Positions 6,647 to 18,008 of a DNA stretch of 64,000 nucleotides are shown here, in pieces. The stretch is from a virus (taxonomy: Duplodnaviria > Heunggongvirae > Uroviricota > Caudoviricetes). The position numbers and the translations under genes were made by a program. Position 1 is the stretch's first letter. Every line of letters begins with the position of its first letter. The notes under the pieces are model-generated. The model saw only the letters and a list, made by a program, of their open reading frames with translations. It searched no databases and was not told the origin of the DNA. The stretch lies in the IMG/VR virus record IMGVR_UViG_3300042398_001452; one strand, 5' to 3'.

Positions 6647-6674
6647 TGTGATATTATTCACTGAATGATAAATT

Positions 6675-6689: not shown

Positions 6690-6764
6690 AGATTTAGTCA
6701 GGTTTAAAAAAGAAGAAAATGAAAGATTGTATTTATTATATCCCCACGAGATTAATAAGATCTA

Positions 6765-6800
6765 GGGGTCCCCACCCGGAGGCCGCGCACGCGTAGGAGG
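6765..6800. repeat. GCH copy 2
   Basis: GGGGTCCCCACCCGGAGGCCGCGCACGCGTAGGAGG, 5' of EPM 6819. Confidence 0.55.
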
Positions 6801-6818
6801 TTTTTAGAAAAAACCAGG

Positions 6819-6858
6819 AATCATTTTTTTAATTAAATAAGATTACTTATATTAGCTA
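6819..6858 (+). promoter_or_regulatory. EPM copy
   Basis: Upstream of the 6860 ORF. Confidence 0.55.
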
Positions 6859-6859
6859 T

Positions 6860-7183
6860 ATGGAAACAATCGATAGAAAGGTATTTGAATCCCATGATCT
6901 ATTTGCAGAGATCATGAAGAAGGAATCACACCACGATCATGAGATTGTTGACGAAGGACATGGTTCAAGATGGAAGGAAGATCCAGATGTAGTTAAGCTT
7001 GTTGATGACATGGGAGGTTTAAATAACATTGTAAGACTATTCTTCTCACTTGGTATCACAAAGAATTCTGAAGAATGGAGGAAACTCTACAGAGATATAG
7101 GTTATTCACTCTATGGATATTGGGAGATATTCTATTGGGATATGAATAACGAAGATGCTGCTGATTATCGTTCAGATTGTTAG
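6860..7183 (+). CDS. hypothetical protein (107 aa)
   Basis: Track ORF with EPM upstream and terminator downstream. Confidence 0.55.
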   Translation: METIDRKVFESHDLFAEIMKKESHHDHEIVDEGHGSRWKEDPDVVKLVDDMGGLNNIVRLFFSLGITKNSEEWRKLYRDIGYSLYGYWEIFYWDMNNEDAADYRSDC

Positions 7184-7204
7184 TGGTTTGATTGATTAAC
7201 AAGA

Positions 7205-7231
7205 AAAGGTCGGATTCGCATCCGGCCTTTT
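7205..7231 (+). terminator. rho-independent terminator
   Basis: GGTCGGAT-TCGC-ATCCGGCC plus TTTT. Confidence 0.6.
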
Positions 7232-7271
7232 CCGTGCTCGAAAGTTTCTGGATGTTAGCTGTGGAGATGCA

Positions 7272-7286
7272 CTGGGGAACCGCAGG
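7272..7286. repeat. PAL copy
   Basis: CTGGGGAACCGCAGG. Confidence 0.55.
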
Positions 7287-7309
7287 AACTTTAGGATGTA
7301 CCAATTAAA

Positions 7310-7350
7310 AATCATTTTTTTTATCAATGTTTTATTACTATCTTTGCATC
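7310..7350 (+). promoter_or_regulatory. EPM copy (degenerate 3' half)
   Basis: AATCATTTTTTTTATCAATGTTTTATTACTATCTTTGCATC before ATG 7351. Confidence 0.4.
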
Positions 7351-7902
7351 ATGGGATACACAACAGAATTTGAAGGTCGATTTGACCTGGATAGAGAATT
7401 AAGCGAGGAGATGTTTAATTTTCTAAAATCATTCAACGAGACAAGGAGAATGAAAAGAAAGATTAGTGACGAATTTGGTGTGGAGGGTGAATTTTTCGTA
7501 AAAGGAGGTAGCTATTTTGGTCAAGGTCGTGAGGATAATATAATTGAGTATAATGAACCTCCGAGTACACAACCCGGGCTATGGTGTCAATGGACACCTA
7601 CGGAAGACCGAAAAGGAATTGAATGGGATGGGGGAGAGAAATTTTATGACTATACCGAATGGCTAGTATATCTTGTTAATAAGATACTTGCCCCGAATGG
7701 ATATGTCTTAAACGGAGCCGTTCAATGGGAGGGTGAAGAAAGAGGTGACAGAGGAAAAATTATAGTCGAGAACAATAAAGTCTATACTAAGAAGGGAAGG
7801 TTAAAAGACGAGATAACCCCAGAAAATGCTAGGAAGTACATAGCAGGTGAAGGATGGAAATACGATTTTATGATGGCCGAGACTGTTTTAAAATTGTCTT
7901 AA
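7351..7902 (+). CDS. hypothetical protein (about 183 aa; the track ORF 7327..7902 probably starts at the internal ATG 7351)
   Basis: A degenerate EPM copy ends just before 7351. Terminator at 7921. Confidence 0.55.
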   Translation: MGYTTEFEGRFDLDRELSEEMFNFLKSFNETRRMKRKISDEFGVEGEFFVKGGSYFGQGREDNIIEYNEPPSTQPGLWCQWTPTEDRKGIEWDGGEKFYDYTEWLVYLVNKILAPNGYVLNGAVQWEGEERGDRGKIIVENNKVYTKKGRLKDEITPENARKYIAGEGWKYDFMMAETVLKLS

Positions 7903-7920
7903 TCTATAGTACGATTCTTA

Positions 7921-7946
7921 AAGGCCGATGTAGTTCGGCCTTTTTT
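7921..7946 (+). terminator. rho-independent terminator
   Basis: AGGCCGA-TGTAG-TTCGGCCT plus T6. Confidence 0.7.
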
Positions 7947-7990
7947 GTGTGCCGTAAATTATTTTTAGAAAATTCTACCTTTTTCTCAGA

Positions 7991-8032
7991 AATCATTTTT
8001 TTATTAGTAGAAAAATCCATATATTTGCTATG
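7991..8032 (+). promoter_or_regulatory. EPM copy
   Basis: Upstream of the 8054 ORF. Confidence 0.6.
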
Positions 8033-8053
8033 TAACCAATTAAAAACAACCCC

Positions 8054-8359
8054 ATGAAAAACCAAATGACAGCAGAACAGAAGGCGAAAAAAGCAGCAGC
8101 TAACAAAGCTTACCGTGAGCGTAAAAAAATGAAAGCTCAAAACTGGATGGAGCTCGACAAGTTCGAAATGAGCTTTGAACATAAAATTCGCCTTTTCAAA
8201 AACCTTAAACTGGAAATCACAAACTCCTACTGTGCGAGTCCAGGTACGGTCTTAAAGTTTGAAAGAATATCGAACGAAGACAACTTGATAGTTTTCCGAG
8301 TACGCCGCACCGGACGAAGAACTTTCTTCACCACCTCTGAAGAACTAACCGTTAGTTAG
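8054..8359 (+). CDS. member A of a 4-copy paralogous family of basic about 100-aa proteins (KAKKAAANKAYRERKK...RVRRTGRRTFFTT)
   Basis: Paralogs at 11083, 14929 and 16281 share NWMELDKFEMSFEHKIRLFKNLKLE and RVRRTGRRTFFTT. EPM upstream. Confidence 0.7.
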   Translation: MKNQMTAEQKAKKAAANKAYRERKKMKAQNWMELDKFEMSFEHKIRLFKNLKLEITNSYCASPGTVLKFERISNEDNLIVFRVRRTGRRTFFTTSEELTVS

Positions 8360-8378
8360 TTCTTTGGAAACCCCGCGA

Positions 8379-8400
8379 AGGAGCTTAGGCTCCTTTTTTT
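8379..8400 (+). terminator. rho-independent terminator
   Basis: GGAGC-TTAG-GCTCC plus T7. Confidence 0.7.
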
Positions 8401-8431
8401 GTGAACCAAGGTTTTATGGATGTTGTATTTT

Positions 8432-8446
8432 CTGGGGAACCCCAGG
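8432..8446. repeat. PAL copy
   Basis: CTGGGGAACCCCAGG. Confidence 0.65.
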
Positions 8447-8460
8447 AATCTGGATACCAA

Positions 8461-8502
8461 AATCATTTTTTTATCTCGCTGGAAAATACTATATTTACTA
8501 TA
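8461..8502 (+). promoter_or_regulatory. EPM copy
   Basis: Upstream of the small ORF at 8503. Confidence 0.55.
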
Positions 8503-8609
8503 TGAAAAACAGGGAGTTAAACAAACAAATACTAATTAAGCTAGCACCATATCTTTTCATTGCTACTATATTAGGTGTATCATTTTTATTACTACATTAT
8601 CTTGGCTAA
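8503..8609 (+). CDS. possible 35-aa membrane peptide
   Basis: EPM copy at 8461 ends right before this ATG. The sequence is hydrophobic. Confidence 0.35.
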
Positions 8610-8649
8610 AACAAAAGTAAGATTCAATCTAAGCAGGGGTAAGAACTAC

Positions 8650-8976
8650 ATGAAGTGGAAGATTGCATACCCCGACGGTTCTATCGAATACATAGATCCA
8701 AATAAAAGCGATTTAACGCTTAAAAAATGCAGACTCAAGAATAATCCTAAAGCCGCTAATAAAATCCTGCTAGGAGCAAATAAAACGGTGTGTGCATGGA
8801 TTCTTTGTGACGATGTTATAATCGTTGAAAGAAATCATAAAGATATAGAAGAAGTGCAAAGACTCCGGTACAACCCCCGGGTAGCTGCAAACTGGAACTT
8901 TAGAGATGTCAATGTTGACGGTAAAGATTTCCATCTCATAGAAAGCCGAGGTAGCAAGCTGTATATTATTTACTAG
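8650..8976 (+). CDS. hypothetical protein (about 108 aa, start chosen at MKWK)
   Basis: Track ORF 8575..8976. Internal ATG at 8650 was chosen to avoid overlap with the small upstream ORF. Confidence 0.5.
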   Translation: MKWKIAYPDGSIEYIDPNKSDLTLKKCRLKNNPKAANKILLGANKTVCAWILCDDVIIVERNHKDIEEVQRLRYNPRVAANWNFRDVNVDGKDFHLIESRGSKLYIIY

Positions 8977-9020
8977 AATCATTTTTTTCTTTTCATAGAT
9001 TTTTCTACATTTGTTGTGTA
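8977..9020 (+). promoter_or_regulatory. EPM copy
   Basis: Upstream of the 9030 ORF. Confidence 0.55.
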
Positions 9021-9029
9021 AACAAAAGA

Positions 9030-9500
9030 ATGCCATCGTTATATTATCTTTCAAATGCACCATCAAATCTAAGAGACCTTGTAGCGTATTTGCCTGAGGA
9101 CTCTCGCATTTATTTAGTTGGCCACGGGCAAATGAATGCTTCAAAACTTTTGACTGCCTTTAAGAAATCATTAAAATTAAAAGGCGTATATTTAGGCTGT
9201 GTAGGCACCGGAAATTACCCGGGTGTTCAAGCAGCCAAAACATCATTGCCCCCTGGAGTTTACTATGGACCAATTAAATTTGATACGTATAATACTAAAG
9301 AACACCGGCATCTTAAAATGGTCCCCGCTTTTCTTGATTCTTATCTAGAGAGTATTAAATTAAAAGATCCCACTAGATATTCTTCTGCAATCTACGCTTT
9401 AAAAGAATCGGGTATTTCCCCTGATATTATAAGAAAGCATGAAGAAGAAAATAGACATATAATACGTTCAGGATCAATCCTTAGCAGATTCAGATTCTAA
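9030..9500 (+). CDS. hypothetical protein (156 aa) carrying the shared C-terminal module ...SAIYALKESGISPDIIRKHEE..RSGSILSRFRF
   Basis: C-terminal about 40 aa align with C-termini of 25482..26555, 29417..29989 and 31305..32828. EPM upstream. Confidence 0.65.
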   Translation: MPSLYYLSNAPSNLRDLVAYLPEDSRIYLVGHGQMNASKLLTAFKKSLKLKGVYLGCVGTGNYPGVQAAKTSLPPGVYYGPIKFDTYNTKEHRHLKMVPAFLDSYLESIKLKDPTRYSSAIYALKESGISPDIIRKHEEENRHIIRSGSILSRFRF

Positions 9501-9533
9501 GCATACTGCTGATCCTCCGGGTAAATAATAAGG

Positions 9534-9577
9534 AATCATTTTTTTATCTATGTAGAATTTTCTATATTAGCTATGTA
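9534..9577 (+). promoter_or_regulatory. EPM copy
   Basis: Upstream of the 9594 ORF. Confidence 0.6.
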
Positions 9578-9593
9578 ACCAACCATAATAATC

Positions 9594-9959
9594 ATGGAAG
9601 ACAAAAAGAAAATTACACCAGAGGAGAGGGTAGAGGGAATACTTAAAAGATATTCTCCTATAGACCATGAATACGAGAAAAGATTAGATAGAGCTGTTAG
9701 TAAATACTTTGCGGGGAGAAGATCTAACGATTCAGCTTTTGATGATGTTTTTGAATTCTATTACAATAAAGGAGACCTTTCAGCCGCTGATATAACTATC
9801 GAGGAATACGATGAATTAGATTGGAATCCTAGTGTCAGAATTCAGGCAGAGGTTGTACAATCTGCAGATCTTGACGATGAATTATTTTATTATCTAAGAG
9901 GGATTGTAGATCCTGATTGGTACGATGATGACGATGATGACGATGATGACGAATGGTAG
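9594..9959 (+). CDS. hypothetical acidic protein with poly-Asp tail (121 aa)
   Basis: Track ORF with EPM upstream. Ends in DDDDDDDDDEW. Confidence 0.6.
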   Translation: MEDKKKITPEERVEGILKRYSPIDHEYEKRLDRAVSKYFAGRRSNDSAFDDVFEFYYNKGDLSAADITIEEYDELDWNPSVRIQAEVVQSADLDDELFYYLRGIVDPDWYDDDDDDDDDEW

Positions 9960-9982
9960 AAAAAGAATCAAAAAAGATTTAA

Positions 9983-10023
9983 AATCATTTTTTTATCTGT
10001 AGAAGAATCCATATATTAGCTTA
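9983..10023 (+). promoter_or_regulatory. EPM copy
   Basis: Upstream of the 10047 ORF. Confidence 0.6.
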
Positions 10024-10046
10024 GTTAATCAATTAAACAAAACCAA

Positions 10047-10226
10047 ATGGAAAAGCTAGCAGAAAGAATCAATCTTACAATCGTATCACTTCTTCTTTTA
10101 GTGACAGCGGGAATCTTCTTCATCTCCGTAATAGGAGGGCACGTACTAATGGGAATCATCTCAGGGTGCCTAACTTGGATAGCAACAAGAATCTTAAAAA
10201 TCACATTGGATGAAACCAGAGGATAA
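10047..10226 (+). CDS. possible 59-aa membrane peptide
   Basis: ATG lies just after EPM copy 9983. Two hydrophobic stretches. Below the ORF-track size cut-off. Confidence 0.4.
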   Translation: MEKLAERINLTIVSLLLLVTAGIFFISVIGGHVLMGIISGCLTWIATRILKITLDETRG

Positions 10227-10440
10227 AACACCCGCTACGAAAAAACAATGGTGGGCTTTAGTAAGAAAGGACCTAGATGAATGGAACTCTAAAGCTCACC
10301 CGGAGGATCGGATGGGAATACAAGACTGGATAGGTGAGGTTGGACCTAACATCCACGGATGGATTGCCTTCAGAGATAGGTACGGTGATTGGGATGCTTC
10401 ACTAAGTGGCTTCCCTGATGATGAAGATGACGATTATTAG
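10210..10440 (+). CDS. hypothetical protein (76 aa)
   Basis: Track ORF overlapping the end of the preceding peptide. Confidence 0.5.
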   Translation: MKPEDKTPATKKQWWALVRKDLDEWNSKAHPEDRMGIQDWIGEVGPNIHGWIAFRDRYGDWDASLSGFPDDEDDDY

Positions 10441-10480
10441 TGGGGTCCCCGGCAGGAGGCCGCGTGCCTACGTGCGTACG
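10441..10480. repeat. GCH copy 3
   Basis: TGGGGTCCCCGGCAGGAGGCCGCGTGCCTACGTGCGTACG, 5' of EPM 10507. Confidence 0.55.
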
Positions 10481-10506
10481 AGAGAGATAAATCAGAAAAA
10501 AACTGG

Positions 10507-10547
10507 AATCATTTTTTTAAACAAAGCATTTTAAATACATTTACCTC
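10507..10547 (+). promoter_or_regulatory. EPM copy (degenerate)
   Basis: Abuts ATG 10548. Confidence 0.4.
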
Positions 10548-10811
10548 ATGAACACTTACAAATTTAGAGCAGAATGCCTTATTGATGTGATACAATTCAT
10601 GGGTCATGCACCAGAACTAATACAAAACATAGAGGTAGACAAGGATGAAAGGTTTCCTGATTGCTATGTCACTCTTAAAACCCTCTCAGATATGTCAGAG
10701 GTACTAAATAAAATACTTGAAATGAAAGGAGACGTTCATGTTATGTTTGAAAGCCTTCAACCAGAAGGAGAATACACAGGGCAAAGAATAAGAAGCTTCT
10801 TTCATTCATAA
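10548..10811 (+). CDS. hypothetical protein (87 aa)
   Basis: Track ORF with a degenerate EPM copy upstream. Confidence 0.55.
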   Translation: MNTYKFRAECLIDVIQFMGHAPELIQNIEVDKDERFPDCYVTLKTLSDMSEVLNKILEMKGDVHVMFESLQPEGEYTGQRIRSFFHS

Positions 10812-10882
10812 AAAGACCACTTCATAAAGAAGTAAAAGAAACTATTCTGTGATATGTTTAGTTTGATTAACACCCCTAAAAG

Positions 10883-10912
10883 GGATTCGGCTTCGGCTCG
10901 GATCCTTTTTTT
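10883..10912 (+). terminator. rho-independent terminator
   Basis: GGATTCGGC-TTCG-GCTCGGATCC (imperfect) plus T7. Confidence 0.6.
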
Positions 10913-10948
10913 GCGAGCCGAGGTTTTGACCAGGCCAGCTTGATTCAC

Positions 10949-10963
10949 CTGGGGAACCCCAGG
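10949..10963. repeat. PAL copy within a longer conserved element (GGCCAGCTTGATTCACCTGGGGAACCCCAGG..GATCCAGCC)
   Basis: The extended element recurs at 12371-12425 and 12921-12953. Confidence 0.65.
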
Positions 10964-11016
10964 AATCTTGATCCAGCCCTAGAATTTTTTTTTAGAAATT
11001 TCCACTTTTTTCCAAG

Positions 11017-11060
11017 AATCATTTTTTTATGTAGAATATTCTACTTATATTTGTATTGTT
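11017..11060 (+). promoter_or_regulatory. EPM copy
   Basis: Upstream of the 11083 ORF. Confidence 0.55.
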
Positions 11061-11082
11061 AATCAATTAAACACTTATAATT

Positions 11083-11394
11083 ATGAAAAAGGAAATGACA
11101 GCAGAACAAAAAGCAAAAAAGGCGGAGGCGAACAAGGCGTACAGAGAGCGCAAAAAAATGAAATCCCAAAACTGGATGGAATTGGATAAGTTCGAAATGA
11201 GTTTTGAACATAAAATCCGACTTTTTAAAAATCTTAAACTTGAGGATAGCAATTCCTACTGCGCTTCCCCGAACACGGTTTTGAGATTTGAAAAACTAAC
11301 CAATAACGATAATATAATCGTTTATCGGGTTCGCCGCACAGGTCGTCGAACTTTCTTCACCACATCCAACCACCTAGTCGCACCGGTTCAATAA
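11083..11394 (+). CDS. member B of the 4-copy basic-protein paralog family
   Basis: MKKEMTAEQKAKKAEANKAYRERKK...RVRRTGRRTFFTT. EPM upstream. Confidence 0.7.
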   Translation: MKKEMTAEQKAKKAEANKAYRERKKMKSQNWMELDKFEMSFEHKIRLFKNLKLEDSNSYCASPNTVLRFEKLTNNDNIIVYRVRRTGRRTFFTTSNHLVAPVQ

Positions 11395-11410
11395 CCGGGC
11401 ACTAGCCGAA

Positions 11411-11436
11411 AGGAACCTTAGGGTTCCTTTTTTACA
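11411..11436 (+). terminator. rho-independent terminator
   Basis: AGGAACC-TTAG-GGTTCCT plus T6. Confidence 0.75.
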
Positions 11437-11446
11437 TCCCAACCCA

Positions 11447-11461
11447 CTGCGGTTCCCCAGG
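11447..11461. repeat. PAL copy
   Basis: CTGCGGTTCCCCAGG, preceded by ACATCCCAACCCA as in the copy at 15311. Confidence 0.6.
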
Positions 11462-11486
11462 AGTTTTGATCAGAAATGATTTAAGA

Positions 11487-11527
11487 AATCATTTTTTTAT
11501 TCTAGATAAATCTCTTATATTTACTAT
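11487..11527 (+). promoter_or_regulatory. EPM copy
   Basis: Abuts ATG 11528. Confidence 0.5.
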
Positions 11528-12307
11528 ATGATATACAACCAAATATATGACTTCTGTAAGGTAAGAAATCTAGGAAGTGTTTTTGAAAATACTGATGTGC
11601 CTACACCGAGGGTGGAATTCCTACTAGAGCTTCTTGAGAAAGAAGGAGTCTCTTATGAGATCGATCGGTACAAGAAAACATTTAACTTTCTAGAGGAGCA
11701 AACAGATGTTTGGTGTTACAACATTATACTAAGGGGTGACTCAGATAAGATGCTAGTTGCTCATCATGATGTTGCTAACCATGAAATCGATAATGCTAAT
11801 GACAACTCCGCTTCCGTTATCAACGCAATAGCTTTAAAGAAAATGTTACCTAACATTCACGTTGTGTTATTAGACGGTGAGGAATTCGGAGGCATCGGAG
11901 CACAAAGAGTATCCGAACAAATCAATAAGGGAGACTTCGGTGATATCTCTTTTGTACTTAACCTTGAACTATCAGGTAAGGGAGGTAAACAATTTTTCGT
12001 CGGAGACGTTGGGGAATTCCCGAGTATACTCCATGAAAAAATTAAATCACAATTTCCATGTCCCACTGTTAGCACTCCGTTTAATGACTCGGTGGTGTTC
12101 AGAAGAAATGGTATAGACTCTTGCGTGATAAATCCTTTACCTAGCACGGATAATATTAATCCTCTCTCCCGAGCTATCTTTGAAGGAAGACAACTAGATA
12201 TGTCAATGCTTTACCACTGCCACACCTCGAAGGACACAATCGATACTATCGACCCAAATGATATGAAAGAATTCACCGAAGAGGTTGTTTTTAAAATTCT
12301 TGAATAA
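11528..12307 (+). CDS. hypothetical protein, possibly an M28/M20-like zinc peptidase fold (259 aa)
   Basis: HHDVANHEIDNANDNSASV followed by LLDGEEFGGIGAQ resembles the H-x-D...D-N-x-S-G and E-E-x-G motifs of M28/M20 aminopeptidases. Weak, motif-level only. Confidence 0.45.
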   Translation: MIYNQIYDFCKVRNLGSVFENTDVPTPRVEFLLELLEKEGVSYEIDRYKKTFNFLEEQTDVWCYNIILRGDSDKMLVAHHDVANHEIDNANDNSASVINAIALKKMLPNIHVVLLDGEEFGGIGAQRVSEQINKGDFGDISFVLNLELSGKGGKQFFVGDVGEFPSILHEKIKSQFPCPTVSTPFNDSVVFRRNGIDSCVINPLPSTDNINPLSRAIFEGRQLDMSMLYHCHTSKDTIDTIDPNDMKEFTEEVVFKILE

Positions 12308-12331
12308 GTAATCCTTCCATCCATAGAAGAG

Positions 12332-12358
12332 TCAGCATTTTATATGCTGGCTTTTTTT
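12332..12358 (+). terminator. rho-independent terminator
   Basis: CAGCAT-TTTATAT-GCTGG plus T7. Confidence 0.65.
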
Positions 12359-12392
12359 GTGGTCCAAAAAACTTAGGCCAGCTTGATTCACC

Positions 12393-12407
12393 TGGGGAAC
12401 CACAGCA
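12393..12407. repeat. PAL copy (degenerate)
   Basis: CTGGGGAACCACAGC within the extended GGCCAGCTTGATTCACCTG element. Confidence 0.5.
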
Positions 12408-12440
12408 AACCTGATCCAGCCTGTGCAAACTTTTTTCAGA

Positions 12441-12482
12441 AATCATTTTTATTTCTGTAGAATAATCTATACTTTAGCCTAG
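12441..12482 (+). promoter_or_regulatory. EPM copy
   Basis: Upstream of the 12504 ORF. Confidence 0.55.
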
Positions 12483-12503
12483 TTAATCAATCAAATAAAA
12501 ACA

Positions 12504-12866
12504 ATGACAAAAGAAACTTTAAATGCAGATTTGATAAATCAAATCATCAAGATGGATGGGGAACTTGATAAGGACCCAACGTACAAGAAGTATGAAAAAA
12601 TATTTGCAACTCAAAAAATAAAAGAGAGTATAGCAAAGAACTTCGGTATCGAGGCTGACCTTGTACCACAAGAGATGGTAGATGATCTACTAGTTTTCGC
12701 TGAAGAAAATAGCAGTGGCAACGGGCTAACTCCAGAGCTCGTAGTAAGCAGGAAAGATGAAGTGATGGAACTAGTTGAAGCTATAATCGATGTAGCCAAC
12801 TGGGATGAGGAATATGAACTAAGTCATAAACTTAAAGTGTTCGTAGACCTTCTTAAACAACTATAA
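12504..12866 (+). CDS. hypothetical acidic protein (120 aa)
   Basis: Track ORF with EPM upstream and terminator downstream. Confidence 0.55.
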   Translation: MTKETLNADLINQIIKMDGELDKDPTYKKYEKIFATQKIKESIAKNFGIEADLVPQEMVDDLLVFAEENSSGNGLTPELVVSRKDEVMELVEAIIDVANWDEEYELSHKLKVFVDLLKQL

Positions 12867-12884
12867 GAACTCAACAAAAAACAG

Positions 12885-12908
12885 AAGCCAGCAATGCTGG
12901 CTTTTTTT
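12885..12908 (+). terminator. rho-independent terminator
   Basis: AGCCAGCA-ATGC-TGGCT plus T7. Confidence 0.7.
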
Positions 12909-12938
12909 GTGCAACAAACCTAGGCCAGCATGATTCAC

Positions 12939-12953
12939 CTGAGGCTCCCCAGG
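12939..12953. repeat. PAL copy
   Basis: CTGAGGCTCCCCAGG within the extended element. Confidence 0.55.
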
Positions 12954-12976
12954 CTAGGAATCAAGAAAGATTCAGA

Positions 12977-13018
12977 AATCATTTTTTTGTTTGTGGAAAA
13001 ATCTATATATTAGCTATG
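12977..13018 (+). promoter_or_regulatory. EPM copy
   Basis: Upstream of the 13042 ORF. Confidence 0.6.
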
Positions 13019-13041
13019 TTAATCAATTAAAACACTAGCTT

Positions 13042-13197
13042 ATGTACTCTTTAGATTGTGACTATTACACAAAACAATTTTCATCCATCGATGAACTTCT
13101 AACAGATATTGTATTATCTGGTATGGACCCGAACTATGTAATAACATATAATGGTGTTACTATAGGATATCAAGCTATTGAACTAATACAATTTTAA
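13042..13197 (+). CDS. possible 51-aa protein
   Basis: ATG placed after EPM copy 12977. Next EPM copy follows immediately at 13200. Confidence 0.35.
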   Translation: MYSLDCDYYTKQFSSIDELLTDIVLSGMDPNYVITYNGVTIGYQAIELIQF

Positions 13198-13199
13198 GA

Positions 13200-13240
13200 A
13201 ATCATTTTTTTAATCAAATAGAATTTTCTACATTTACATT
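13200..13240 (+). promoter_or_regulatory. EPM copy
   Basis: Upstream of the 13256 ORF. Confidence 0.55.
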
Positions 13241-13255
13241 ATAAAACAAAATCAC

Positions 13256-13483
13256 ATGATACTCTTTATAACAATTTTCATCTTAGCTCTCCTGGTCCCC
13301 GTAATCACACAGACAGTAGGAATTGACCAATCCACAAATCAATATAAGGAGAGCTACATCGCGGAGGTGGGTGCCACCAGTTACTTTACCCTACCTCGAG
13401 GACAGCCCAAGTCACGGGCTTCTATTATAACAAACAAATCACTCCCACGCAACAAGGGAGAGCCCAAAGAAAACTCAAGTTAA
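13256..13483 (+). CDS. hypothetical protein with N-terminal transmembrane segment (75 aa)
   Basis: Track ORF with EPM upstream. Confidence 0.45.
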   Translation: MILFITIFILALLVPVITQTVGIDQSTNQYKESYIAEVGATSYFTLPRGQPKSRASIITNKSLPRNKGEPKENSS

Positions 13484-13487
13484 AAAA

Positions 13488-13512
13488 AAGACTCCACAAG
13501 GGTCTTTTTTTG
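13488..13512 (+). terminator. rho-independent terminator
   Basis: AGACTC-CACAA-GGGTCT (imperfect) plus T7. Confidence 0.6.
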
Positions 13513-13548
13513 TGGACCAAGTTTTTCAAATAGCATATGCTAGATTCT

Positions 13549-13564
13549 CTGAGGAACCACAGAG
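13549..13564. repeat. PAL copy (degenerate)
   Basis: CTGAGGAACCACAGAG. Confidence 0.45.
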
Positions 13565-13606
13565 AATCATTTTTTTATTTGTGGAAAAATCTTTATATTT
13601 GGATAT
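13565..13606 (+). promoter_or_regulatory. EPM copy
   Basis: Upstream of the 13634 ORF. Confidence 0.55.
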
Positions 13607-13633
13607 ATAAGTATAAATAAATAAAAAATTAAA

Positions 13634-14137
13634 ATGAAACACATTAAATTATTTGAGGGATTCATGAAGAATCCAAATCCTTATAAGGACATAACAGAAA
13701 GAGGTGAGTCTGTTTTCTTATTCCACGAAGAAGATTCTATTTGGTTTGGAATATTTCCAGATAATGTTGCGGAGGATCTTAAATATGCTTCTGAAGATTA
13801 TATGAAACATGCAATATCTAAAGGTTTAGGAGAGGAATATTACGATGTTTTTGTTGACCGAAGAGAAGGACTAGCTTATGTTGAATGGGAAGGTAAAAAT
13901 GGATGGAATGCTTGTACCCCAGGAGAAATTGATGTAAACGATTATAATTATGTTATGATGCCAGATGGAACTGAAATAGAAATTAATCCATCTGCTAAAT
14001 ATTCATCTCTTCCTTTATTTGCTTTAGAAAGAGGAATGATAACACACTATCAAGGAAACCACGGTAATGAACCTATGACTGTTCGAGAATACATGGATCA
14101 TTTAGAAAGTGGAAAATCAGATTGGTATTCTATGTAA
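13634..14137 (+). CDS. leader-family protein (N-terminus MKHIKLFEGF), 167 aa
   Basis: Carries the conserved N-terminal decapeptide shared by 17 proteins in this window. EPM upstream. Confidence 0.65.
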   Translation: MKHIKLFEGFMKNPNPYKDITERGESVFLFHEEDSIWFGIFPDNVAEDLKYASEDYMKHAISKGLGEEYYDVFVDRREGLAYVEWEGKNGWNACTPGEIDVNDYNYVMMPDGTEIEINPSAKYSSLPLFALERGMITHYQGNHGNEPMTVREYMDHLESGKSDWYSM

Positions 14138-14157
14138 GAAATAAAATATATCTAAAA

Positions 14158-14182
14158 AAAGACCCTACAAGGGTCTTTTTTT
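14158..14182 (+). terminator. rho-independent terminator
   Basis: AGACCC-TACAA-GGGTCT plus T8. Confidence 0.75.
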
Positions 14183-14222
14183 ATGCTCCAAGGTTTACAG
14201 TAAACAGTCTACTGTAAACCAA

Positions 14223-14237
14223 CTGAGGAACCTCAGG
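14223..14237. repeat. PAL copy
   Basis: CTGAGGAACCTCAGG, where both arms changed (G to A with C to T) and the palindrome is preserved. Confidence 0.65.
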
Positions 14238-14287
14238 AAAATAGATGTAGAGAAGGATTACATCTATAACTACATCTATAACTATAG

Positions 14288-14333
14288 CGGGCTCCCCCGG
14301 GGGACGCGTGCGTACGTGTGCACGCGTAGGCAC
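14288..14333. repeat. GCH copy 4
   Basis: GGGCTCCCCCGGGGGACGCGTGCGTACGTGTGCACGCGTAGGCAC carries a perfect 8-bp hairpin ACGCGTGC-gtacgtgt-GCACGCGT. 5' of EPM 14345. Confidence 0.6.
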
Positions 14334-14344
14334 TTTTTTTCAGA

Positions 14345-14388
14345 AATCATTTTTTTATTTGTAGAAAATTCCATACATTAGCTATGTT
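14345..14388 (+). promoter_or_regulatory. EPM copy
   Basis: Upstream of the 14409 ORF. Confidence 0.6.
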
Positions 14389-14408
14389 AATCAATTAAAT
14401 ATATACAA

Positions 14409-14543
14409 ATGGAAAGAACAATCAATTTTATCGCTTGGAGCCTTATCACTGTTTTAGCTTCACTTACAATCTATGGTATACTTTACGCAGCTATACAGAT
14501 AGTTATAGGTAATGTACATTCAACAGCAAGCTTTGAATTTTAA
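14409..14543 (+). CDS. possible 44-aa membrane peptide
   Basis: ATG immediately after EPM copy 14345. Hydrophobic. Confidence 0.3.
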   Translation: MERTINFIAWSLITVLASLTIYGILYAAIQIVIGNVHSTASFEF

Positions 14544-14547
14544 AAAA

Positions 14548-14709
14548 AATGAAAACTGTAATAACAAAATCACAACTTCTTAAGATAGAATCCGGGAGAG
14601 TCAGAGAAGACCAGAAAGCCCAAGGTTTCTTCGATGGAAGATTTGTTACAAGAGCTCAAGATTCAAAAAAGAAATACTCCCGCAAGGAGAAGCACAAGGG
14701 CATCAACTA
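14548..14709 (+). CDS. possible 53-aa basic peptide
   Basis: Small ORF between the preceding peptide and the terminator at 14730. Confidence 0.3.
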
Positions 14710-14729
14710 AGAAACAAAACCCTATCTAC

Positions 14730-14757
14730 CCCTTGTCCGTTCGGACAGGGGTTTTTT
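14730..14757 (+). terminator. rho-independent terminator
   Basis: CCTTGTCCG-TTCG-GACAGGGG plus T6. Confidence 0.7.
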
Positions 14758-14786
14758 GTGCGAATCCAAAATCCCTCTTAATCATC

Positions 14787-14802
14787 CTGGGGTTCCGCCG
14801 AG
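14787..14802. repeat. PAL copy (degenerate)
   Basis: CTGGGGTTCCGCCGAG. Confidence 0.4.
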
Positions 14803-14872
14803 TGGATTCAAAGAATCAGACCTCCTGAGATACCCCGAAAACTTTTTTCAAAAAAAATCAGAAATCATTTTT

Positions 14873-14914
14873 TTATTTGTAGAAAATTCTATATTTTAGC
14901 TAAGTTAATCAATT
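14873..14914 (+). promoter_or_regulatory. EPM copy
   Basis: Upstream of the 14929 ORF. Confidence 0.6.
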
Positions 14915-14928
14915 AAACAATATCAATT

Positions 14929-15249
14929 ATGAAAAAGGAAATGACAATGGAACAAAAAGCAAAAAAAGCAGCAGCGAACAAAGCTTACCGTGAGCGTAAG
15001 AAAAACCAAGCGGCAACTCCGAATTGGATGGAATTGGATAAGTTCGAAATGAGTTTCACTCACAAAATTCGACTTTTCAAAAACCTCAAATTGGAAATCA
15101 CAAATTCCTACTGCGCTTCCCCTGGTACAGTTTTGAGATTTGAAAAAATTAAAAACGAAGATAATAAAATTATCTTTCGAGTACGCCGCACCGGTCGTCG
15201 CACCTTCTTCACCACCTCGACTAACCTACACGCACCAGTCGAGGCGTGA
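14929..15249 (+). CDS. member C of the 4-copy basic-protein paralog family
   Basis: MKKEMTMEQKAKKAAANKAYRERKK...RVRRTGRRTFFTT. EPM upstream. Confidence 0.7.
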   Translation: MKKEMTMEQKAKKAAANKAYRERKKNQAATPNWMELDKFEMSFTHKIRLFKNLKLEITNSYCASPGTVLRFEKIKNEDNKIIFRVRRTGRRTFFTTSTNLHAPVEA

Positions 15250-15273
15250 TCGGGGTGGATGTAAAAAACCCAC

Positions 15274-15297
15274 GGGAATCTTCGGATTCCCTTTTTT
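15274..15297 (+). terminator. rho-independent terminator (paralogous hairpin GGGAATC-TTCG-GATTCCC)
   Basis: Hairpin plus T6. Same hairpin family as those at 15576 and 16604. Confidence 0.7.
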
Positions 15298-15310
15298 ACA
15301 TCCAAGCCCA

Positions 15311-15325
15311 CTGCGGTTCCGCAGG
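15311..15325. repeat. PAL copy
   Basis: CTGCGGTTCCGCAGG, where both arms changed (G to C with C to G) and the palindrome is preserved. Confidence 0.65.
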
Positions 15326-15357
15326 GAGACAGAAATTATTTTAAATAAAAATTCGAA

Positions 15358-15401
15358 AATCATTTTTTTATTTGTAGAAAATTCTATATATTAGCTATGT
15401 T
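15358..15401 (+). promoter_or_regulatory. EPM copy (exact consensus)
   Basis: Upstream of the 15422 ORF. Confidence 0.6.
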
Positions 15402-15421
15402 AATCAATCAAATAAAAACAT

Positions 15422-15571
15422 ATGAAATCAGAAACAAAAAAGAAATTAGAATTTCTAAAATCATTAGGATTGTCAGAAAATGAAATTAGTGAATTATTAG
15501 ATTCCCAATTCATCCTCGACCAATCCCAAGAATTTAAAAGGGAGGAAATTGAAGAAGAAGAAGAGTTTTAA
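15422..15571 (+). CDS. possible 49-aa acidic peptide
   Basis: ATG right after EPM copy 15358. Terminator at 15576. Confidence 0.35.
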   Translation: MKSETKKKLEFLKSLGLSENEISELLDSQFILDQSQEFKREEIEEEEEF

Positions 15572-15575
15572 AATT

Positions 15576-15600
15576 GGGGAATCTCCGGATTCCCTTTTTA
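15576..15600 (+). terminator. rho-independent terminator (GGGGAATC-TCCG-GATTCCC)
   Basis: Hairpin plus T5. Confidence 0.65.
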
Positions 15601-15613
15601 ATTTATATACCCT

Positions 15614-15630
15614 CTGCGGAACCCCAGAGG
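15614..15630. repeat. PAL copy
   Basis: CTGCGGAACCCCAGAGG. Confidence 0.55.
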
Positions 15631-15673
15631 GGCTCCATGGGGGACGCGTGCGTACGTGCGCCCGCGTAGAGGG
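15631..15673. repeat. GCH copy 5
   Basis: GGCTCCATGGGGGACGCGTGCGTACGTGCGCCCGCGTAGAGGG, 5' of EPM 15684. Confidence 0.55.
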
Positions 15674-15683
15674 TTTTTTCAGA

Positions 15684-15724
15684 AATCATTTTTTTATCTT
15701 CCCTAGATTTATTATATTTACACT
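15684..15724 (+). promoter_or_regulatory. EPM copy (degenerate)
   Basis: Abuts ATG 15725. Confidence 0.45.
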
Positions 15725-15928
15725 ATGTCACTAACACCACAACAATTAAAAGCTAATGCAGACTTCTTTAATAATGTAGCTGCAATGACCAAGATGTATG
15801 TGTGGCCTGATACTGGCCACATTTATAAAATAGAAGAAGGGATCTTTATCTGTGACTCCCCGGAATCATTTAATGATTTAAAAGATAACACTCCAGAAAC
15901 TTTCCATTATAAAATCAAAATGAAATAA
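15725..15928 (+). CDS. hypothetical protein (67 aa)
   Basis: Track ORF with EPM upstream. Confidence 0.5.
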   Translation: MSLTPQQLKANADFFNNVAAMTKMYVWPDTGHIYKIEEGIFICDSPESFNDLKDNTPETFHYKIKMK

Positions 15929-15981
15929 AATAAATCCTTATATTTGTATTATACATTTAAATTTTATTCCCATAAAATTTG

Positions 15982-16010
15982 AACCCTAGAAGAAATTCTA
16001 GGGTTTTTTT
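15982..16010 (+). terminator. rho-independent terminator
   Basis: AACCCTAGA-AGAAAT-TCTAGGGTT plus T7. Confidence 0.75.
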
Positions 16011-16072
16011 GTGTAATCAAAATACAAGCATATAGTAAGACACCGGAGTTTCCTCGATAGATCTTATACCCC

Positions 16073-16090
16073 ATAGCGGAACCCCAGGGG
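16073..16090. repeat. PAL copy (first of a 3-copy cluster)
   Basis: ATAGCGGAACCCCAGGGG. Confidence 0.55.
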
Positions 16091-16119
16091 ATAAAAAAAA
16101 ATTAAATATATAAAACCCC

Positions 16120-16134
16120 CTGCGGAACCCCCAG
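16120..16134. repeat. PAL copy (cluster)
   Basis: CTGCGGAACCCCCAG. Confidence 0.55.
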
Positions 16135-16156
16135 TTAAAATTTTAAAAAATACCTT

Positions 16157-16176
16157 GGAAGGTTCCGCAGGGAACC
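16157..16176. repeat. PAL-related palindrome in shifted register (cluster)
   Basis: GGAAGGTTCCGCAGGGAACC contains GGTTCC-gcag-GGAACC. Confidence 0.5.
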
Positions 16177-16215
16177 ATTAAAATAAATTTTTAGAAATTT
16201 CCACTTTTTTCCAAG

Positions 16216-16258
16216 AATCATTTTTTTGTTTGTAGAAAAATCCATATATTAGCTATGT
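16216..16258 (+). promoter_or_regulatory. EPM copy
   Basis: Upstream of the 16281 ORF. Confidence 0.6.
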
Positions 16259-16280
16259 TAATCAATTAAACAAAAACAAA

Positions 16281-16583
16281 ATGAAAAAGGAAACAGTAAA
16301 AAAACCAGTTGCTAAAAAATCAGTTAAAAATTCTAACACTCCAGAATGGTTAAATCTGGAAAAGTTTGAAATGAGTTTTGAACATAAAATCAGACTTTTT
16401 AGAAATCTGAAACTTGAAACTACAAACTCCTACTGTGCAACTCCGGGTACTCCTCTTAAATTTGAAAAAATTAAAAATGAGGATAACAAGATTGTTTATC
16501 GAGTTCGCCGCAACGGTCGTAGAACTTTCTTTACAACTTGCGACCATTTGAAAAATCAAGTTGAAACAATACCCGCGGAATAA
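16281..16583 (+). CDS. member D of the 4-copy basic-protein paralog family
   Basis: ...WLNLEKFEMSFEHKIRLFRNLKLE...RVRRNGRRTFFTT. EPM upstream. Confidence 0.7.
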   Translation: MKKETVKKPVAKKSVKNSNTPEWLNLEKFEMSFEHKIRLFRNLKLETTNSYCATPGTPLKFEKIKNEDNKIVYRVRRNGRRTFFTTCDHLKNQVETIPAE

Positions 16584-16603
16584 TCGGGTTTACAAAAAAT
16601 AAA

Positions 16604-16628
16604 GGGGGAATCTCCGGATTCCCTTTTT
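16604..16628 (+). terminator. rho-independent terminator (GGGGGAATC-TCCG-GATTCCC)
   Basis: Hairpin plus T5. Confidence 0.65.
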
Positions 16629-16641
16629 AATAAAAATTTCT

Positions 16642-16656
16642 CTGCGGAACCCCAGG
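16642..16656. repeat. PAL copy
   Basis: CTGCGGAACCCCAGG. Confidence 0.6.
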
Positions 16657-16680
16657 AACACTGATCAGAAAAGATTCAGA

Positions 16681-16722
16681 AATCATTTTTTTTATTTGGA
16701 AAAATCTATTATATTAGCTATG
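16681..16722 (+). promoter_or_regulatory. EPM copy
   Basis: Upstream of the 16741 ORF. Confidence 0.55.
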
Positions 16723-16740
16723 TAATCAAACTAAGAACAA

Positions 16741-16947
16741 ATGGACATTTTAGAAGTTTTCAAATCTATAAAACAAAGTAGAAAAAATCTTAAAGATTTA
16801 GAAGCCCAAGTGATTCTTTTATGGGGAGATCTCTATTGGCTTAATAGTGATTTTCAAAGTAGTAATGAAGCTGCTATGATGGAAAAGATTAGTACAGATA
16901 TTCAATATGATTTACAAAAATATAATTCATTTATTTCATTAAACTAG
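16741..16947 (+). CDS. hypothetical protein (68 aa)
   Basis: Track ORF with EPM upstream. Confidence 0.5.
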   Translation: MDILEVFKSIKQSRKNLKDLEAQVILLWGDLYWLNSDFQSSNEAAMMEKISTDIQYDLQKYNSFISLN

Positions 16948-17003
16948 AAAATAAATTCTTATATTTGTAGTTCATAAAATATTTATTCTTGGAATAAACA
17001 CTA

Positions 17004-17032
17004 AACCCTAGATTGATCATCTAGGGTTTTTT
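17004..17032 (+). terminator. rho-independent terminator
   Basis: AACCCTAGAT-TGATC-ATCTAGGGTT plus T6. Confidence 0.75.
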
Positions 17033-17065
17033 GTGTGTAAAAAAAATCTATACTATATGATTCCC

Positions 17066-17080
17066 CTGCGGCACCCCAAC
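17066..17080. repeat. PAL copy (CTGCGGCACCCC subtype)
   Basis: CTGCGGCACCCCAAC. Confidence 0.5.
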
Positions 17081-17122
17081 GAGATTTTTTATGTATTTAA
17101 TTTTTATATACTATTTTTACAT

Positions 17123-17137
17123 TGGGGGAACCGCAGG
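17123..17137. repeat. PAL copy
   Basis: TGGGGGAACCGCAGG. Confidence 0.5.
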
Positions 17138-17161
17138 AAGACTAATAAGAAAAGATTTAGA

Positions 17162-17205
17162 AATCATTTTTTTATATGTAGAAAAATCCATATATTTATA
17201 TAATC
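17162..17205 (+). promoter_or_regulatory. EPM copy with no ORF downstream (ATG-TAA immediately, then a terminator)
   Basis: The motif is intact. The downstream 17222..17297 region ends in a hairpin plus T-run. Confidence 0.5.
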
Positions 17206-17266
17206 AATAAAACAAAAAGAAATGTAATATTATCATTTAAAAAATAAAATCCCCAATCCCCCAATG

Positions 17267-17296
17267 GAAGAGTTGTATAACTCTTCTTTTTTTTGT
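17267..17296 (+). terminator. rho-independent terminator closing the ORF-less transcript from EPM 17162
   Basis: GAAGAGTT-GTAT-AACTCTTC plus T8. Confidence 0.65.
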
Positions 17297-17323
17297 GGAA
17301 AATTTTAAAACTATTTAAGCTCC

Positions 17324-17337
17324 CTGAGGAACCCCAC
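17324..17337. repeat. PAL copy
   Basis: CTGAGGAACCCCAC. Confidence 0.5.
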
Positions 17338-17417
17338 ATAAAAATTGTAGAGTATAATAGTAAAGTAATAGTAAGAATAGTAAGTAATAGTAGTAAAAAT
17401 GTATTACCATAATTCCT

Positions 17418-17432
17418 CTGCGGCACCCCAGG
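17418..17432. repeat. PAL copy (CTGCGGCACCCCAGG subtype)
   Basis: CTGCGGCACCCCAGG. Confidence 0.6.
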
Positions 17433-17462
17433 GTGGTAAATATATAATTAACTATTTTCAGA

Positions 17463-17505
17463 AATCATTTTTTTATATGTAGTATAATCCATATATTTAC
17501 TTAAT
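17463..17505 (+). promoter_or_regulatory. EPM copy
   Basis: Upstream of the 17519 ORF. Confidence 0.55.
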
Positions 17506-17518
17506 CAATCATTCAAAC

Positions 17519-17755
17519 ATGGCATCATCTAAAACATCTTCAAGCATTAGTATCACAACAGTACTATTTCTGATATTCCTAACTCTTAAACTAACTAACC
17601 TCATAGCATGGTCTTGGTGGTGGGTCACAGCTCCTTTATGGATACCTGTATTACTAGCAATAGCTATTATAGTGATAGCTGCATCAGTAATCATTATTGC
17701 ATTTGCTCTAGGATTCTCCGGAGATGACATTAAAAGAAGAATAAGAAGAAATTAA
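17519..17755 (+). CDS. hypothetical membrane protein (78 aa)
   Basis: Track ORF with EPM upstream. Hydrophobic W-rich core. Confidence 0.5.
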   Translation: MASSKTSSSISITTVLFLIFLTLKLTNLIAWSWWWVTAPLWIPVLLAIAIIVIAASVIIIAFALGFSGDDIKRRIRRN

Positions 17756-17771
17756 CTTAACACACAATATA

Positions 17772-18008
17772 ATGGAAAATCAAACAAAAGTAGATTATCT
17801 AAAAACACTCTTTACTGTAACAGAAGTACAAGATGAAGGATGTAGCTTTGAAGCTCCCGACTGCTATGAAGCATATATCTTATTTGAAGACTTTCAAGTA
17901 GGGGACACCGCGAATGATATATGTAGTGCTTCAGAATACTACTCATGCTGTGGAGACGTATTAGACAAAGACTATATGATGTGTCCAACTTGCTACGAAC
18001 ATTGCTAA
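17772..18008 (+). CDS. hypothetical Cys-rich protein (78 aa)
   Basis: Track ORF. CxxC...CC...CPTC cysteines. Terminator at 18041. Confidence 0.5.
   Translation: MENQTKVDYLKTLFTVTEVQDEGCSFEAPDCYEAYILFEDFQVGDTANDICSASEYYSCCGDVLDKDYMMCPTCYEHC

Follow-up and report, generated by a model that had tools for sequence, protein, structure and literature searches.

Four open reading frames (ORFs) lie between positions 8054 and 16583 of a 64,000-nucleotide (nt) stretch of Caudoviricetes virus DNA (IMG/VR record IMGVR_UViG_3300042398_001452; the whole stretch is hereafter called the window). They raise the question of what their small basic products are, how the copies came about, and whether the surrounding control sequences were duplicated with them. 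Our analysis places these proteins in a lineage-restricted new family on a known fold, embedded in cassettes that resemble the promoter-early stem-loop (PeSL) cassettes of T4-type phages while differing in sequence and promoter type. The four genes, designated copies A to D, are the following:

8054-8359, + strand: coding sequence of copy A, 101 amino acids (aa), with a basic N-terminal helix followed by a predicted SH3-like barrel (ORF list, alignment)
11083-11394, + strand: coding sequence of copy B, 103 aa (ORF list, alignment)
14929-15249, + strand: coding sequence of copy C, 106 aa, the sequence used for structural modelling
16281-16583, + strand: coding sequence of copy D, 100 aa, with a divergent Lys/Pro-rich N-terminus and the same predicted barrel (ORF list, alignment)

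Copies A-D align over their full length with 65-83% identity and 54 invariant columns, and they find each other in BLASTP searches within the window with E-values of 1e-27 to 1e-34. All are very basic (isoelectric point, 9.9-10.3). Hidden Markov models of the family, run against the six-frame translation of the window, recovered exactly A, B, C, and D and no others. The original prediction of four paralogous, basic proteins of about 100 aa encoded on the + strand was thus borne out by the ORF list, alignment, BLASTP, and profile searches. Its claim of three shared motifs stood for A-C, in which each motif is exact or carries one change, but not for D. Specifically, A and C carry KAKKAAANKAYRERKK exactly and B carries it with one change, whereas D lacks it and has a Lys/Pro-rich N-terminus (MKKETVKKPVAKKSVKNSNTPE) unlike those of A-C; NWMELDKFEMSFEHKIRLFKNLKLE is exact in A and B, with one change in C and five in D; and RVRRTGRRTFFTT is exact in A, B, and C, its counterpart in D being RVRRNGRRTFFTT. 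Similarly, the N-termini and C-terminal tails had been said to differ among the copies, which is the case for the tails and the N-terminus of D, whereas A, B, and C have conserved N-termini. Three antisense ORFs that also look paralogous (7904-8182, 11059-11211, and 14923-15063, - strand) were discarded as mirror images of the conserved sense frames.

The copies are old. A Nei-Gojobori analysis of the codon alignment of A-D gave proportions of synonymous differences (pS) of 0.62-0.80, which are saturated (synonymous distance dS at least 1.3 or not computable), against proportions of non-synonymous differences (pN) of 0.13-0.24, and non-synonymous to synonymous ratios (dN/dS) of ∼0.09-0.22 where computable. 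This comparison, which had been proposed as a check on the family, indicates purifying selection and not recent neutral duplication with decay. A protein identical to A (P0002) occurs on 15 metagenome contigs, and near-identical orthologues were found on other metagenome contigs for A (96-100%), B (99%; P0001), and C (95%). A related 206-kilobase (kb) IMG/VR contig (L009, L012) carries an A-like copy with 86% identity, a B-like copy with 88% (L009:9989-10309), a D-like copy with 77% and the same kind of Lys/Pro N-terminus (L009:12759-13094), and a further copy with a zinc-ribbon head (E-type). Since A-, B-, D-, and E-type orthologues are kept in both phages, the duplications are older than the split between them. 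Ancient and individually conserved, the paralogues are thus probably sub-functionalised. The view that they are recent neutral duplicates, or non-coding repeats that happen to hold open frames, could draw on the repeat-rich region and on the antisense ORFs mentioned above, but it is refuted by the excess of pS over pN, the hundreds of intact homologues across contigs, the orthologous copy types kept in the related phage, and the mirror-image nature of the antisense frames. Copies A-D are a genuine functional paralogous family, old and not decaying.

Predicted fold and exchangeable heads

Close relatives of A-D number 352. A set of 1.84 billion representatives yielded just 25 clusters at 50% identity. 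A more distant subfamily comprises 310 members, which follow the core consensus FGFPVRLYWNxRxExxNSSCAKxGTxLxFE...YRVRRGKRNFFT, and a barrel-only subfamily of ∼70 aa has 103 members (hhalign against the main family, 95.8% probability, E 7e-9). The longest contigs carrying family proteins reach 158-344 kb, and the distribution of its sequences marks the family as lineage-restricted, in uncultured large or jumbo phages. No match was obtained for A-D in Pfam at E up to 1, including SH3_3 and SH3_5, and no additional domain was detected; searches against PHROG and NCBIfam profiles were likewise negative. Nucleoid-associated and histone-like families (HU/IHF, H-NS, Dps, Alba, and similar) gave no Pfam, NCBIfam, or PHROG match, and the PADLOC defence profiles yielded one chance-level match (E 0.024). 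Two family profiles searched against PDB sequences returned nothing at E up to 10.

AlphaFold was run on copy C with a 68-sequence alignment spanning both subfamilies. It produced five concordant models with predicted local distance difference test (pLDDT) values of 76-80, rising to 83-91 in the core blocks, in which a helix (residues 7-26) is followed by a low-confidence linker and six strands. Foldseek found no match to the model in PDB or BFVD at E up to 0.1. The model superposes on solved SH3b domains and would qualify, at the level of fold, as an SH3b-like small barrel. Structure prediction had been named as a check, with the lack of any detectable fold counting against the family, and it returned an SH3b-like barrel. 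Each protein is thus predicted to be a conserved β-barrel of ∼70 residues of the SH3b-like type with a preceding basic module. Across the subfamilies, one Arg in the region of the first strand, the turn N-S-x-C-A, and the hairpin R-V-R-R-x-G-R-R/K are invariant, and six arginines are conserved. In the window copies, the arginine hairpin has the sequence RVRR(T/N)GRR, as against YRVRRGKRNFF in the distant relatives.

The N-terminal module is interchangeable and always basic. Copies A, B, and C have an Ala/Lys helix at this place, and D and members such as P0221 have a Lys/Pro tail. A third kind consists of a zinc ribbon, CxxC...YCSKKCxDAAYRxRKK, which runs into the same AYRxRKK helix. It is found in a fifth paralogue outside the window, and the head of a neighbouring gene is similar (CxxC...YCSKKCxDxAYRxRKK). 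Both ribbon heads resemble DUF2116 (PF09889, "probable treble clef") with E-values of 2.6e-4 to 9e-3 and 16-21 bits, below the gathering threshold of 26.8. Copies A-D differ from DUF2116 in lacking all four zinc-ligand cysteines, and A, B, and C evidently keep, as their AYRERKK helix, a remnant of the C-terminal helix of the ribbon module. A literature search on DUF2116 found no relevant paper. The genes concerned lie on contig Ga0453663_0000397, ∼7-14 kb upstream of the window start:

L006:6134-6483: zinc-ribbon paralogue P0253
L019:4001-4216 and L019:4567-4977: barrel-only relative P0278 (71 aa) and its adjoining gene

The database start of P0253 is probably too far upstream, the true start being more likely MKSHCTHCG (∼116 aa). 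The gene adjoining P0278 combines the zinc-ribbon/AYRERKK head with a different tail that contains a second zinc ribbon, and the order of barrel-only gene followed by ribbon-plus-other gene recurs in L012, L014, and L016. On these assignments, the phage of the window has at least six predicted barrel genes.

Flanks, promoters, and dispersal of the copies

The family is embedded in a hyperplastic gene arm, built from a repeated intergenic unit, in which nearly all small genes would be transcription units of their own:

1-18700, + strand: arm holding the family, with ∼28 single-gene units, each of a terminator, a palindrome (or GC-rich variant), a conserved promoter, and an A-rich leader

The arm extends at least 21.9 kb upstream of the window on contig Ga0453663_0000397 (100% identity over 601 nt). 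Its unit begins with an intrinsic-terminator hairpin and T-run, often with TTTTTTTGTG at the end. Between terminator and promoter lies a 14-base-pair (bp) palindrome, CTGNGG-AA-CCNCAG (CTGNGGAACCNCAG), of which there are 17 strict copies (0 in shuffles) and ∼28 relaxed ones, all within 1112-18096 (e.g., at 3443, 4869, 8432, 10949, and 16642), the centre being AA in 11 copies and TT in 3. The promoter follows 16-144 nt past the palindrome and comprises the core GAAATCATTTTTTTAT, a near-palindromic spacer element, TAGAAAWTTCYA, and TATATT(A/T)GCTATG; the leader, such as TTAATCAATTAAAC, is A-rich and lacks a Shine-Dalgarno sequence. With expected counts taken from shuffled controls and the core scored as a 16-mer, the window contains 32 promoter core matches (0.9 expected) and 30 palindrome matches (0.3 expected), and 32 terminator-like sites occur in 7000-18500 (7.2 expected). 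Promoters of the E. coli TTGACA/TATAAT type are not enriched in the same interval (44 versus 42.2 expected). For the palindrome, a double-stranded DNA site is more likely than a hairpin; folding as RNA or single-stranded DNA was rejected, since only 7 of 17 copies allow Watson-Crick pairing between positions 4 and 11 and just 2 nt would be left for the loop. Some units have a GC-rich intergenic motif, GGGGTCCCC..GGAGGCCGCG..GTACGTGCG, in place of the palindrome or in addition to it (∼600-630, ∼6780-6800, 10445-10480, 14290-14330, and 15630-15670), and it tends to stand before a variant promoter, GGAATCATTTTTTTAA. Apart from the sigma factor and an M28 peptidase, the genes of the arm (1-18.7 kb, scanned or pre-annotated) have no Pfam match.

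Downstream of the four family genes, the units are the following:

8377-8445, + strand: unit 3′ of A, with a hairpin and T-run (hairpin at 8377-8396) and palindrome CTGGGGAACCCCAG at 8432-8445; the next gene has its promoter at 8459
11410-11460, + strand: unit 3′ of B, with hairpin AAGGAACC-TTAG-GGTTCCTT and T-run at 11410-11433 and palindrome CTGCGGTTCCCCAG at 11447-11460
15274-15324, + strand: unit 3′ of C, with hairpin GGGAATCTTCGGATTCCC at 15274-15291, a T-run, and palindrome CTGCGGTTCCGCAG at 15311-15324
16604-16655, + strand: unit 3′ of D, with hairpin GGGAATCTCCGGATTCCC at 16606-16623, a T-run, and palindrome CTGCGGAACCCCAG at 16642-16655

From such 3′ flanks it had been concluded that whole cassettes, and not just coding regions, were duplicated. 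The similarities themselves are real: B and C have in common the flank TTTTTTACATCC.A.CCCACTGCGGTTCC.CAGG (11428-11461 and 15292-15325), and hairpins of the form GGGAATCT(C/T)CGGATTCCC occur at 15274, 15576, and 16604-16606. However, the terminator/palindrome/promoter unit precedes ∼28 genes, and the hairpin at 15576 belongs behind an unrelated 49-aa ORF (15422-15571), where a near-copy of the 3′ unit of D occupies 15576-15627. When the 120-nt stretches preceding all promoter cores were compared pairwise, the flank downstream of B scored 39 against that of C, the median over all pairs being 10, and units of unrelated genes scored equally high (12441 versus 12977, 41; upstream of B versus 12441, 40; 15684 versus downstream of D, 39). 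Since the unit flanks nearly every gene of the arm and unrelated pairs are just as alike, the 3′ similarity is no proof of cassette duplication, and the inference fails on this side. Moreover, at dS values above 1, neutral flanking DNA copied together with the genes would have diverged beyond recognition, so that identity of the flanks reflects constraint and/or recombination between units. Such recombination would be a likely route for dispersal of the copies and would account for the seemingly paralogous 3′ flanks.

The 5′ side gives a different picture, as follows from the promoter regions of the four copies:

7966-8040, + strand: promoter region of A, with an extra element, TAGAAAATTCTA, at 7966-7977, core GAAATCATTTTTTTAT at 7989-8004, and spacer TAGAAAAATCCA at 8008-8019, then TATATTTG
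10991-11070, + strand: promoter region of B, with the 24-mer TTTAGAAATTTCCACTTTTTTCCA at 10991-11014, core at 11015-11030, and spacer element at 11032-11043
14861-14915, + strand: promoter region of C, with the generic core at 14861-14876, spacer element at 14880-14891, and no extra upstream copy
16190-16265, + strand: promoter region of D, with a 24-mer identical to that of B at 16190-16213, core AATCATTTTTTT at 16216, and spacer element at 16233-16244

Every promoter has the spacer element once, +17 or +19 relative to the core. In the window, A (7966), B (10993), and D (16192) alone are preceded by another copy, which lies further upstream at -24 or -25, with a distance of 41 bp (about four helical turns) to the first. 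Although their proteins diverge more than those of any other pair, B and D are preceded by the identical 24-mer, which occurs nowhere else in the window. Over the window and related loci, the extra copy was scored at 6 of 9 family promoters versus 2 of 141 others (Fisher P = 1.6e-7). It is also present at the promoters of the orthologues in the related phage, and the promoter of the zinc-ribbon paralogue has a shortened version. Co-duplication of the cassette is thus partly upheld at the 5′ side, by the extra spacer common to the A, B, and D promoters. The near confinement of this element to family promoters implies that the 5′ regulatory region was co-inherited or co-selected with the gene. 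The sequence pattern suggests family-specific regulation through the doubled spacer element, which might possibly be autogenous.

Gene-sized rearrangements are evident in the comparison with the 206-kb relative. The arm is colinear with L009 by tblastx, broken by gaps at 7327-7902, 11528-12866, 13634-14137, and 14929-15928. None of these blocks has a counterpart at the corresponding place in L009, and the last of them contains copy C. The 49-aa ORF that stands beside C in the window is transposed, its homologue (L009:9570-9758) lying upstream of the B-like copy. The gaps and the transposed gene look like signs of cassette-bounded shuffling, with boundaries at the gene level. A 51-aa ORF of the window (13042-13197) is present in L009 as a tandem duplicate.

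Candidate functions

What these proteins do is a question on which we hold a tentative preference, namely, that A-D bind a polyanion, most likely DNA or RNA, and regulate or remodel nucleic acid in the infection programme. The arginine hairpin of the barrel would supply the specific contact as a conserved recognition surface, the basic N-terminal module would raise affinity, and the likely role would be regulation or remodelling of nucleic acid during infection. The nucleic acid binding proposed in the original prediction is thus plausible, given the strongly basic character, the six conserved arginines, and interchangeable heads that are all basic. Early expression is plausible too. The family genes are predicted single-gene transcription units that have conserved, presumably strong promoters and lie next to a phage sigma-factor gene. 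Several observations weigh against this preference. A-D have no sequence match or significant Foldseek match to any known nucleic acid-binding protein, and the best structural neighbours are cell wall- and teichoic acid-binding SH3b domains instead of DNA-binding SH3-like proteins. SH3-like barrels equally often mediate protein-protein contacts. A first AlphaFold run, with close homologues only, was weak (one model with pLDDT 72, the rest ∼50). Finally, the extra upstream promoter element is missing at copy C and was not seen in more distant phages.

The best-surviving alternative, possible but distinctly doubtful, is that of a host-takeover adaptor. The barrel would dock on host RNA polymerase, the ribosome, or a defence protein, with the basic helix on an acidic surface, and the paralogues would aim at different host proteins or alleles. 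Barrels of the SH3, Tudor, and KOW types commonly bind proteins; small multicopy genes in an ORFan arm with strong predicted promoters would suit such a role, as would the lack of matches to nucleic acid-binding families. However, a strongly basic character common to three unrelated N-terminal modules points more to polyanion binding than to a specific protein interface, and dN/dS values of ∼0.1 together with 96-99% orthologues elsewhere give no sign of an arms race.

It is improbable that the proteins are sequence-specific regulators of the arm promoters, which would recognise the spacer TAGAAAWTTCYA (or the palindrome CTGNGGAACCNCAG), silence or tune the arm as a whole, and autoregulate through the doubled site. 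The position of the extra spacer at about four helical turns, its near exclusivity to family promoters, its retention in the related phage, and the 24 identical nt between the most divergent pair all speak for this explanation, as do the basic character of the proteins and a helix that may dimerise. Conversely, copy C and the distant relatives lack the extra element, and the spacer may be part of an optimised promoter, with the doubled element as a partial promoter duplication. Of similarly slight probability is a new regulator class, in which an SH3-like barrel with an Arg hairpin and a treble clef-derived helix would read TAGAAA-TTTCTA in every cassette promoter and switch the whole arm on or off, with autoregulation through the doubled sites at the family promoters, the paralogues reading variant sites.

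Somewhat less probable still are packaged internal or DNA-condensing proteins that would neutralise phage DNA in the capsid or be injected with it. Large phages are known to have multicopy families of small basic internal proteins, such as those of T4, and the high positive charge of A-D would fit. However, the genes lie among monocistronic ORFan units, beside the sigma-factor gene and remote from every structural module that can be recognised in the window, and no propeptide or cleavage motif stood out on reading the sequences, although no search was aimed at such motifs. True SH3b cell wall-binding modules, as in endolysins and NlpC/P60 enzymes, would agree with the closest structural neighbours but are very unlikely, given the 100-106-aa stand-alone proteins with charged N-termini and without signal peptide, hydrophobic segment, or fused catalytic domain, the lack of a Pfam SH3_3/SH3_5 match even at E up to 1, the probable early arm, and a promoter-suggested host type that would have no teichoic acids.

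Genome context and comparison with known systems

The source is a large or jumbo phage that is uncultured. Against ∼50,700 phage records, megablast with 7000-18000 and tblastn with copy C gave no match to cultured relatives, and the closest cultured-phage matches of the window helicase (Dda-like) and sigma factor in the same records have <40% identity, so that no isolate can stand in for this phage. Two sigma-70-family proteins with 35% mutual identity are encoded at 5725-6597 and 41416-42279 (both on the + strand) and may drive later transcription classes; the first gene has regions 1.2, 2, 3, and 4, lies inside the cassette arm, and has the same cassette promoter in front. A transfer-messenger RNA gene at 23446-23866 (+ strand) was called by ARAGORN and matches Rfam RF00023 over its full length with 92.7 bits; the tag peptide predicted from it is of unusual length (ANVYNTEDIMSIPTSLTRVAVAEEAELLMAA). 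Accessory genes that are unusual in a phage encode a deoxyhypusine synthase homologue (50027-51007; Pfam DS, E 1.5e-41), a PAS-PAS-HATPase sensor (histidine) kinase (60680-62305), and an SPFH/Band 7 protein (36820-37722). Other paralogues in the window are a tandem pair (3778-4278/4305-4793; 32% identity), a dispersed pair (21868-22380/26573-27094; 32%), and four genes with a common domain of ∼50-85 aa (9030-9500, 25461-26555, 29417-29989, and 31305-32828). With several such sets, gene-family expansion is common in this genome.

A Bacteroidota-type host is a tentative suggestion, which fits the -7-like TAnnTT(A/T)G and the A-rich leaders without Shine-Dalgarno sequences. Bacteroidota promoters have a -33/-7 spacing of ∼19 nt. 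The TTTG just upstream of the spacer element sits only ∼12 nt from the -7-like motif and was rejected as a -33 element because this distance is too short; host assignment from the promoter thus stays tentative. Among 185,579 cellular species genomes searched with one family profile, the only matches were two 5-6-kb contigs in a metagenome-assembled genome labelled Chlamydiales (L017 and L018; JBEIFG010000127.1 and JBEIFG010000110.1). If real, they would bear on the host, but they are probably mis-binned phage DNA and not host evidence.

If these inferences hold, the family is uncharacterised and abundant in its lineage (∼660 clusters at 90% identity in the two full-length subfamilies, plus ∼100 barrel-only) and represents a new basic SH3-like barrel with swappable basic heads, several distinct copies of which are kept per giant-phage genome. 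The doubled promoter element offers a testable handle on the regulation of one family versus ∼30 neighbours. Existing views are not overturned; we regard the family as a solid lead and no surprise.

The nearest structural comparisons are with bacterial SH3b-like domains, i.e., the N-terminal domain of the NlpC/P60 protein 2evr, AtlE R2ab, the cell wall-binding domains of Listeria phage endolysins, and the GW domains of InlB. Unlike these, A-D are stand-alone, cytoplasmic-looking, and very basic, with an Arg-rich hairpin, no link by sequence profile, and neither a catalytic partner domain nor a secretion signal. SH3-like barrels that bind nucleic acid include the chromatin proteins Sso7d and Cren7, the C-terminal domain of HIV integrase, and Tudor and KOW domains. 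By analogy with these, the β-sheet or hairpin surface of the small, basic, SH3-like barrel of the family could make contact with nucleic acid.

At the level of gene organization, the arm invites comparison with PeSLs, which combine a strong early promoter, an A/T-rich upstream tract, and a stem-loop terminator often with poly-G/poly-C (Arbiol et al. 2010, PMC2839356; Comeau et al. 2014, PMC4122927). PeSLs concentrate in hyperplastic regions around ORFans, and recombination between them leads to indels, swaps, and mini-circles (PMC2839356, PMC4122927). Likewise, the arm has short composites of a predicted stem-loop terminator and a predicted conserved promoter, repeated between small ORFan genes, and gene-sized indels and swaps distinguish it from the related phage. 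In contrast, the unit sequences are unrelated, the promoter has a -7-like TAnnTT(A/T)G and does not belong to the E. coli sigma-70 type, the T-run terminator is an element distinct from the 14-bp GC palindrome, and the arm belongs to a different, uncultured phage lineage. By this analogy, the arm units would be a functional analogue, not a homologue, of PeSL cassettes. The occurrence of PeSL-like cassettes in an unrelated lineage with another promoter type would support the notion that such cassettes are a general solution for the expression and exchange of accessory genes.

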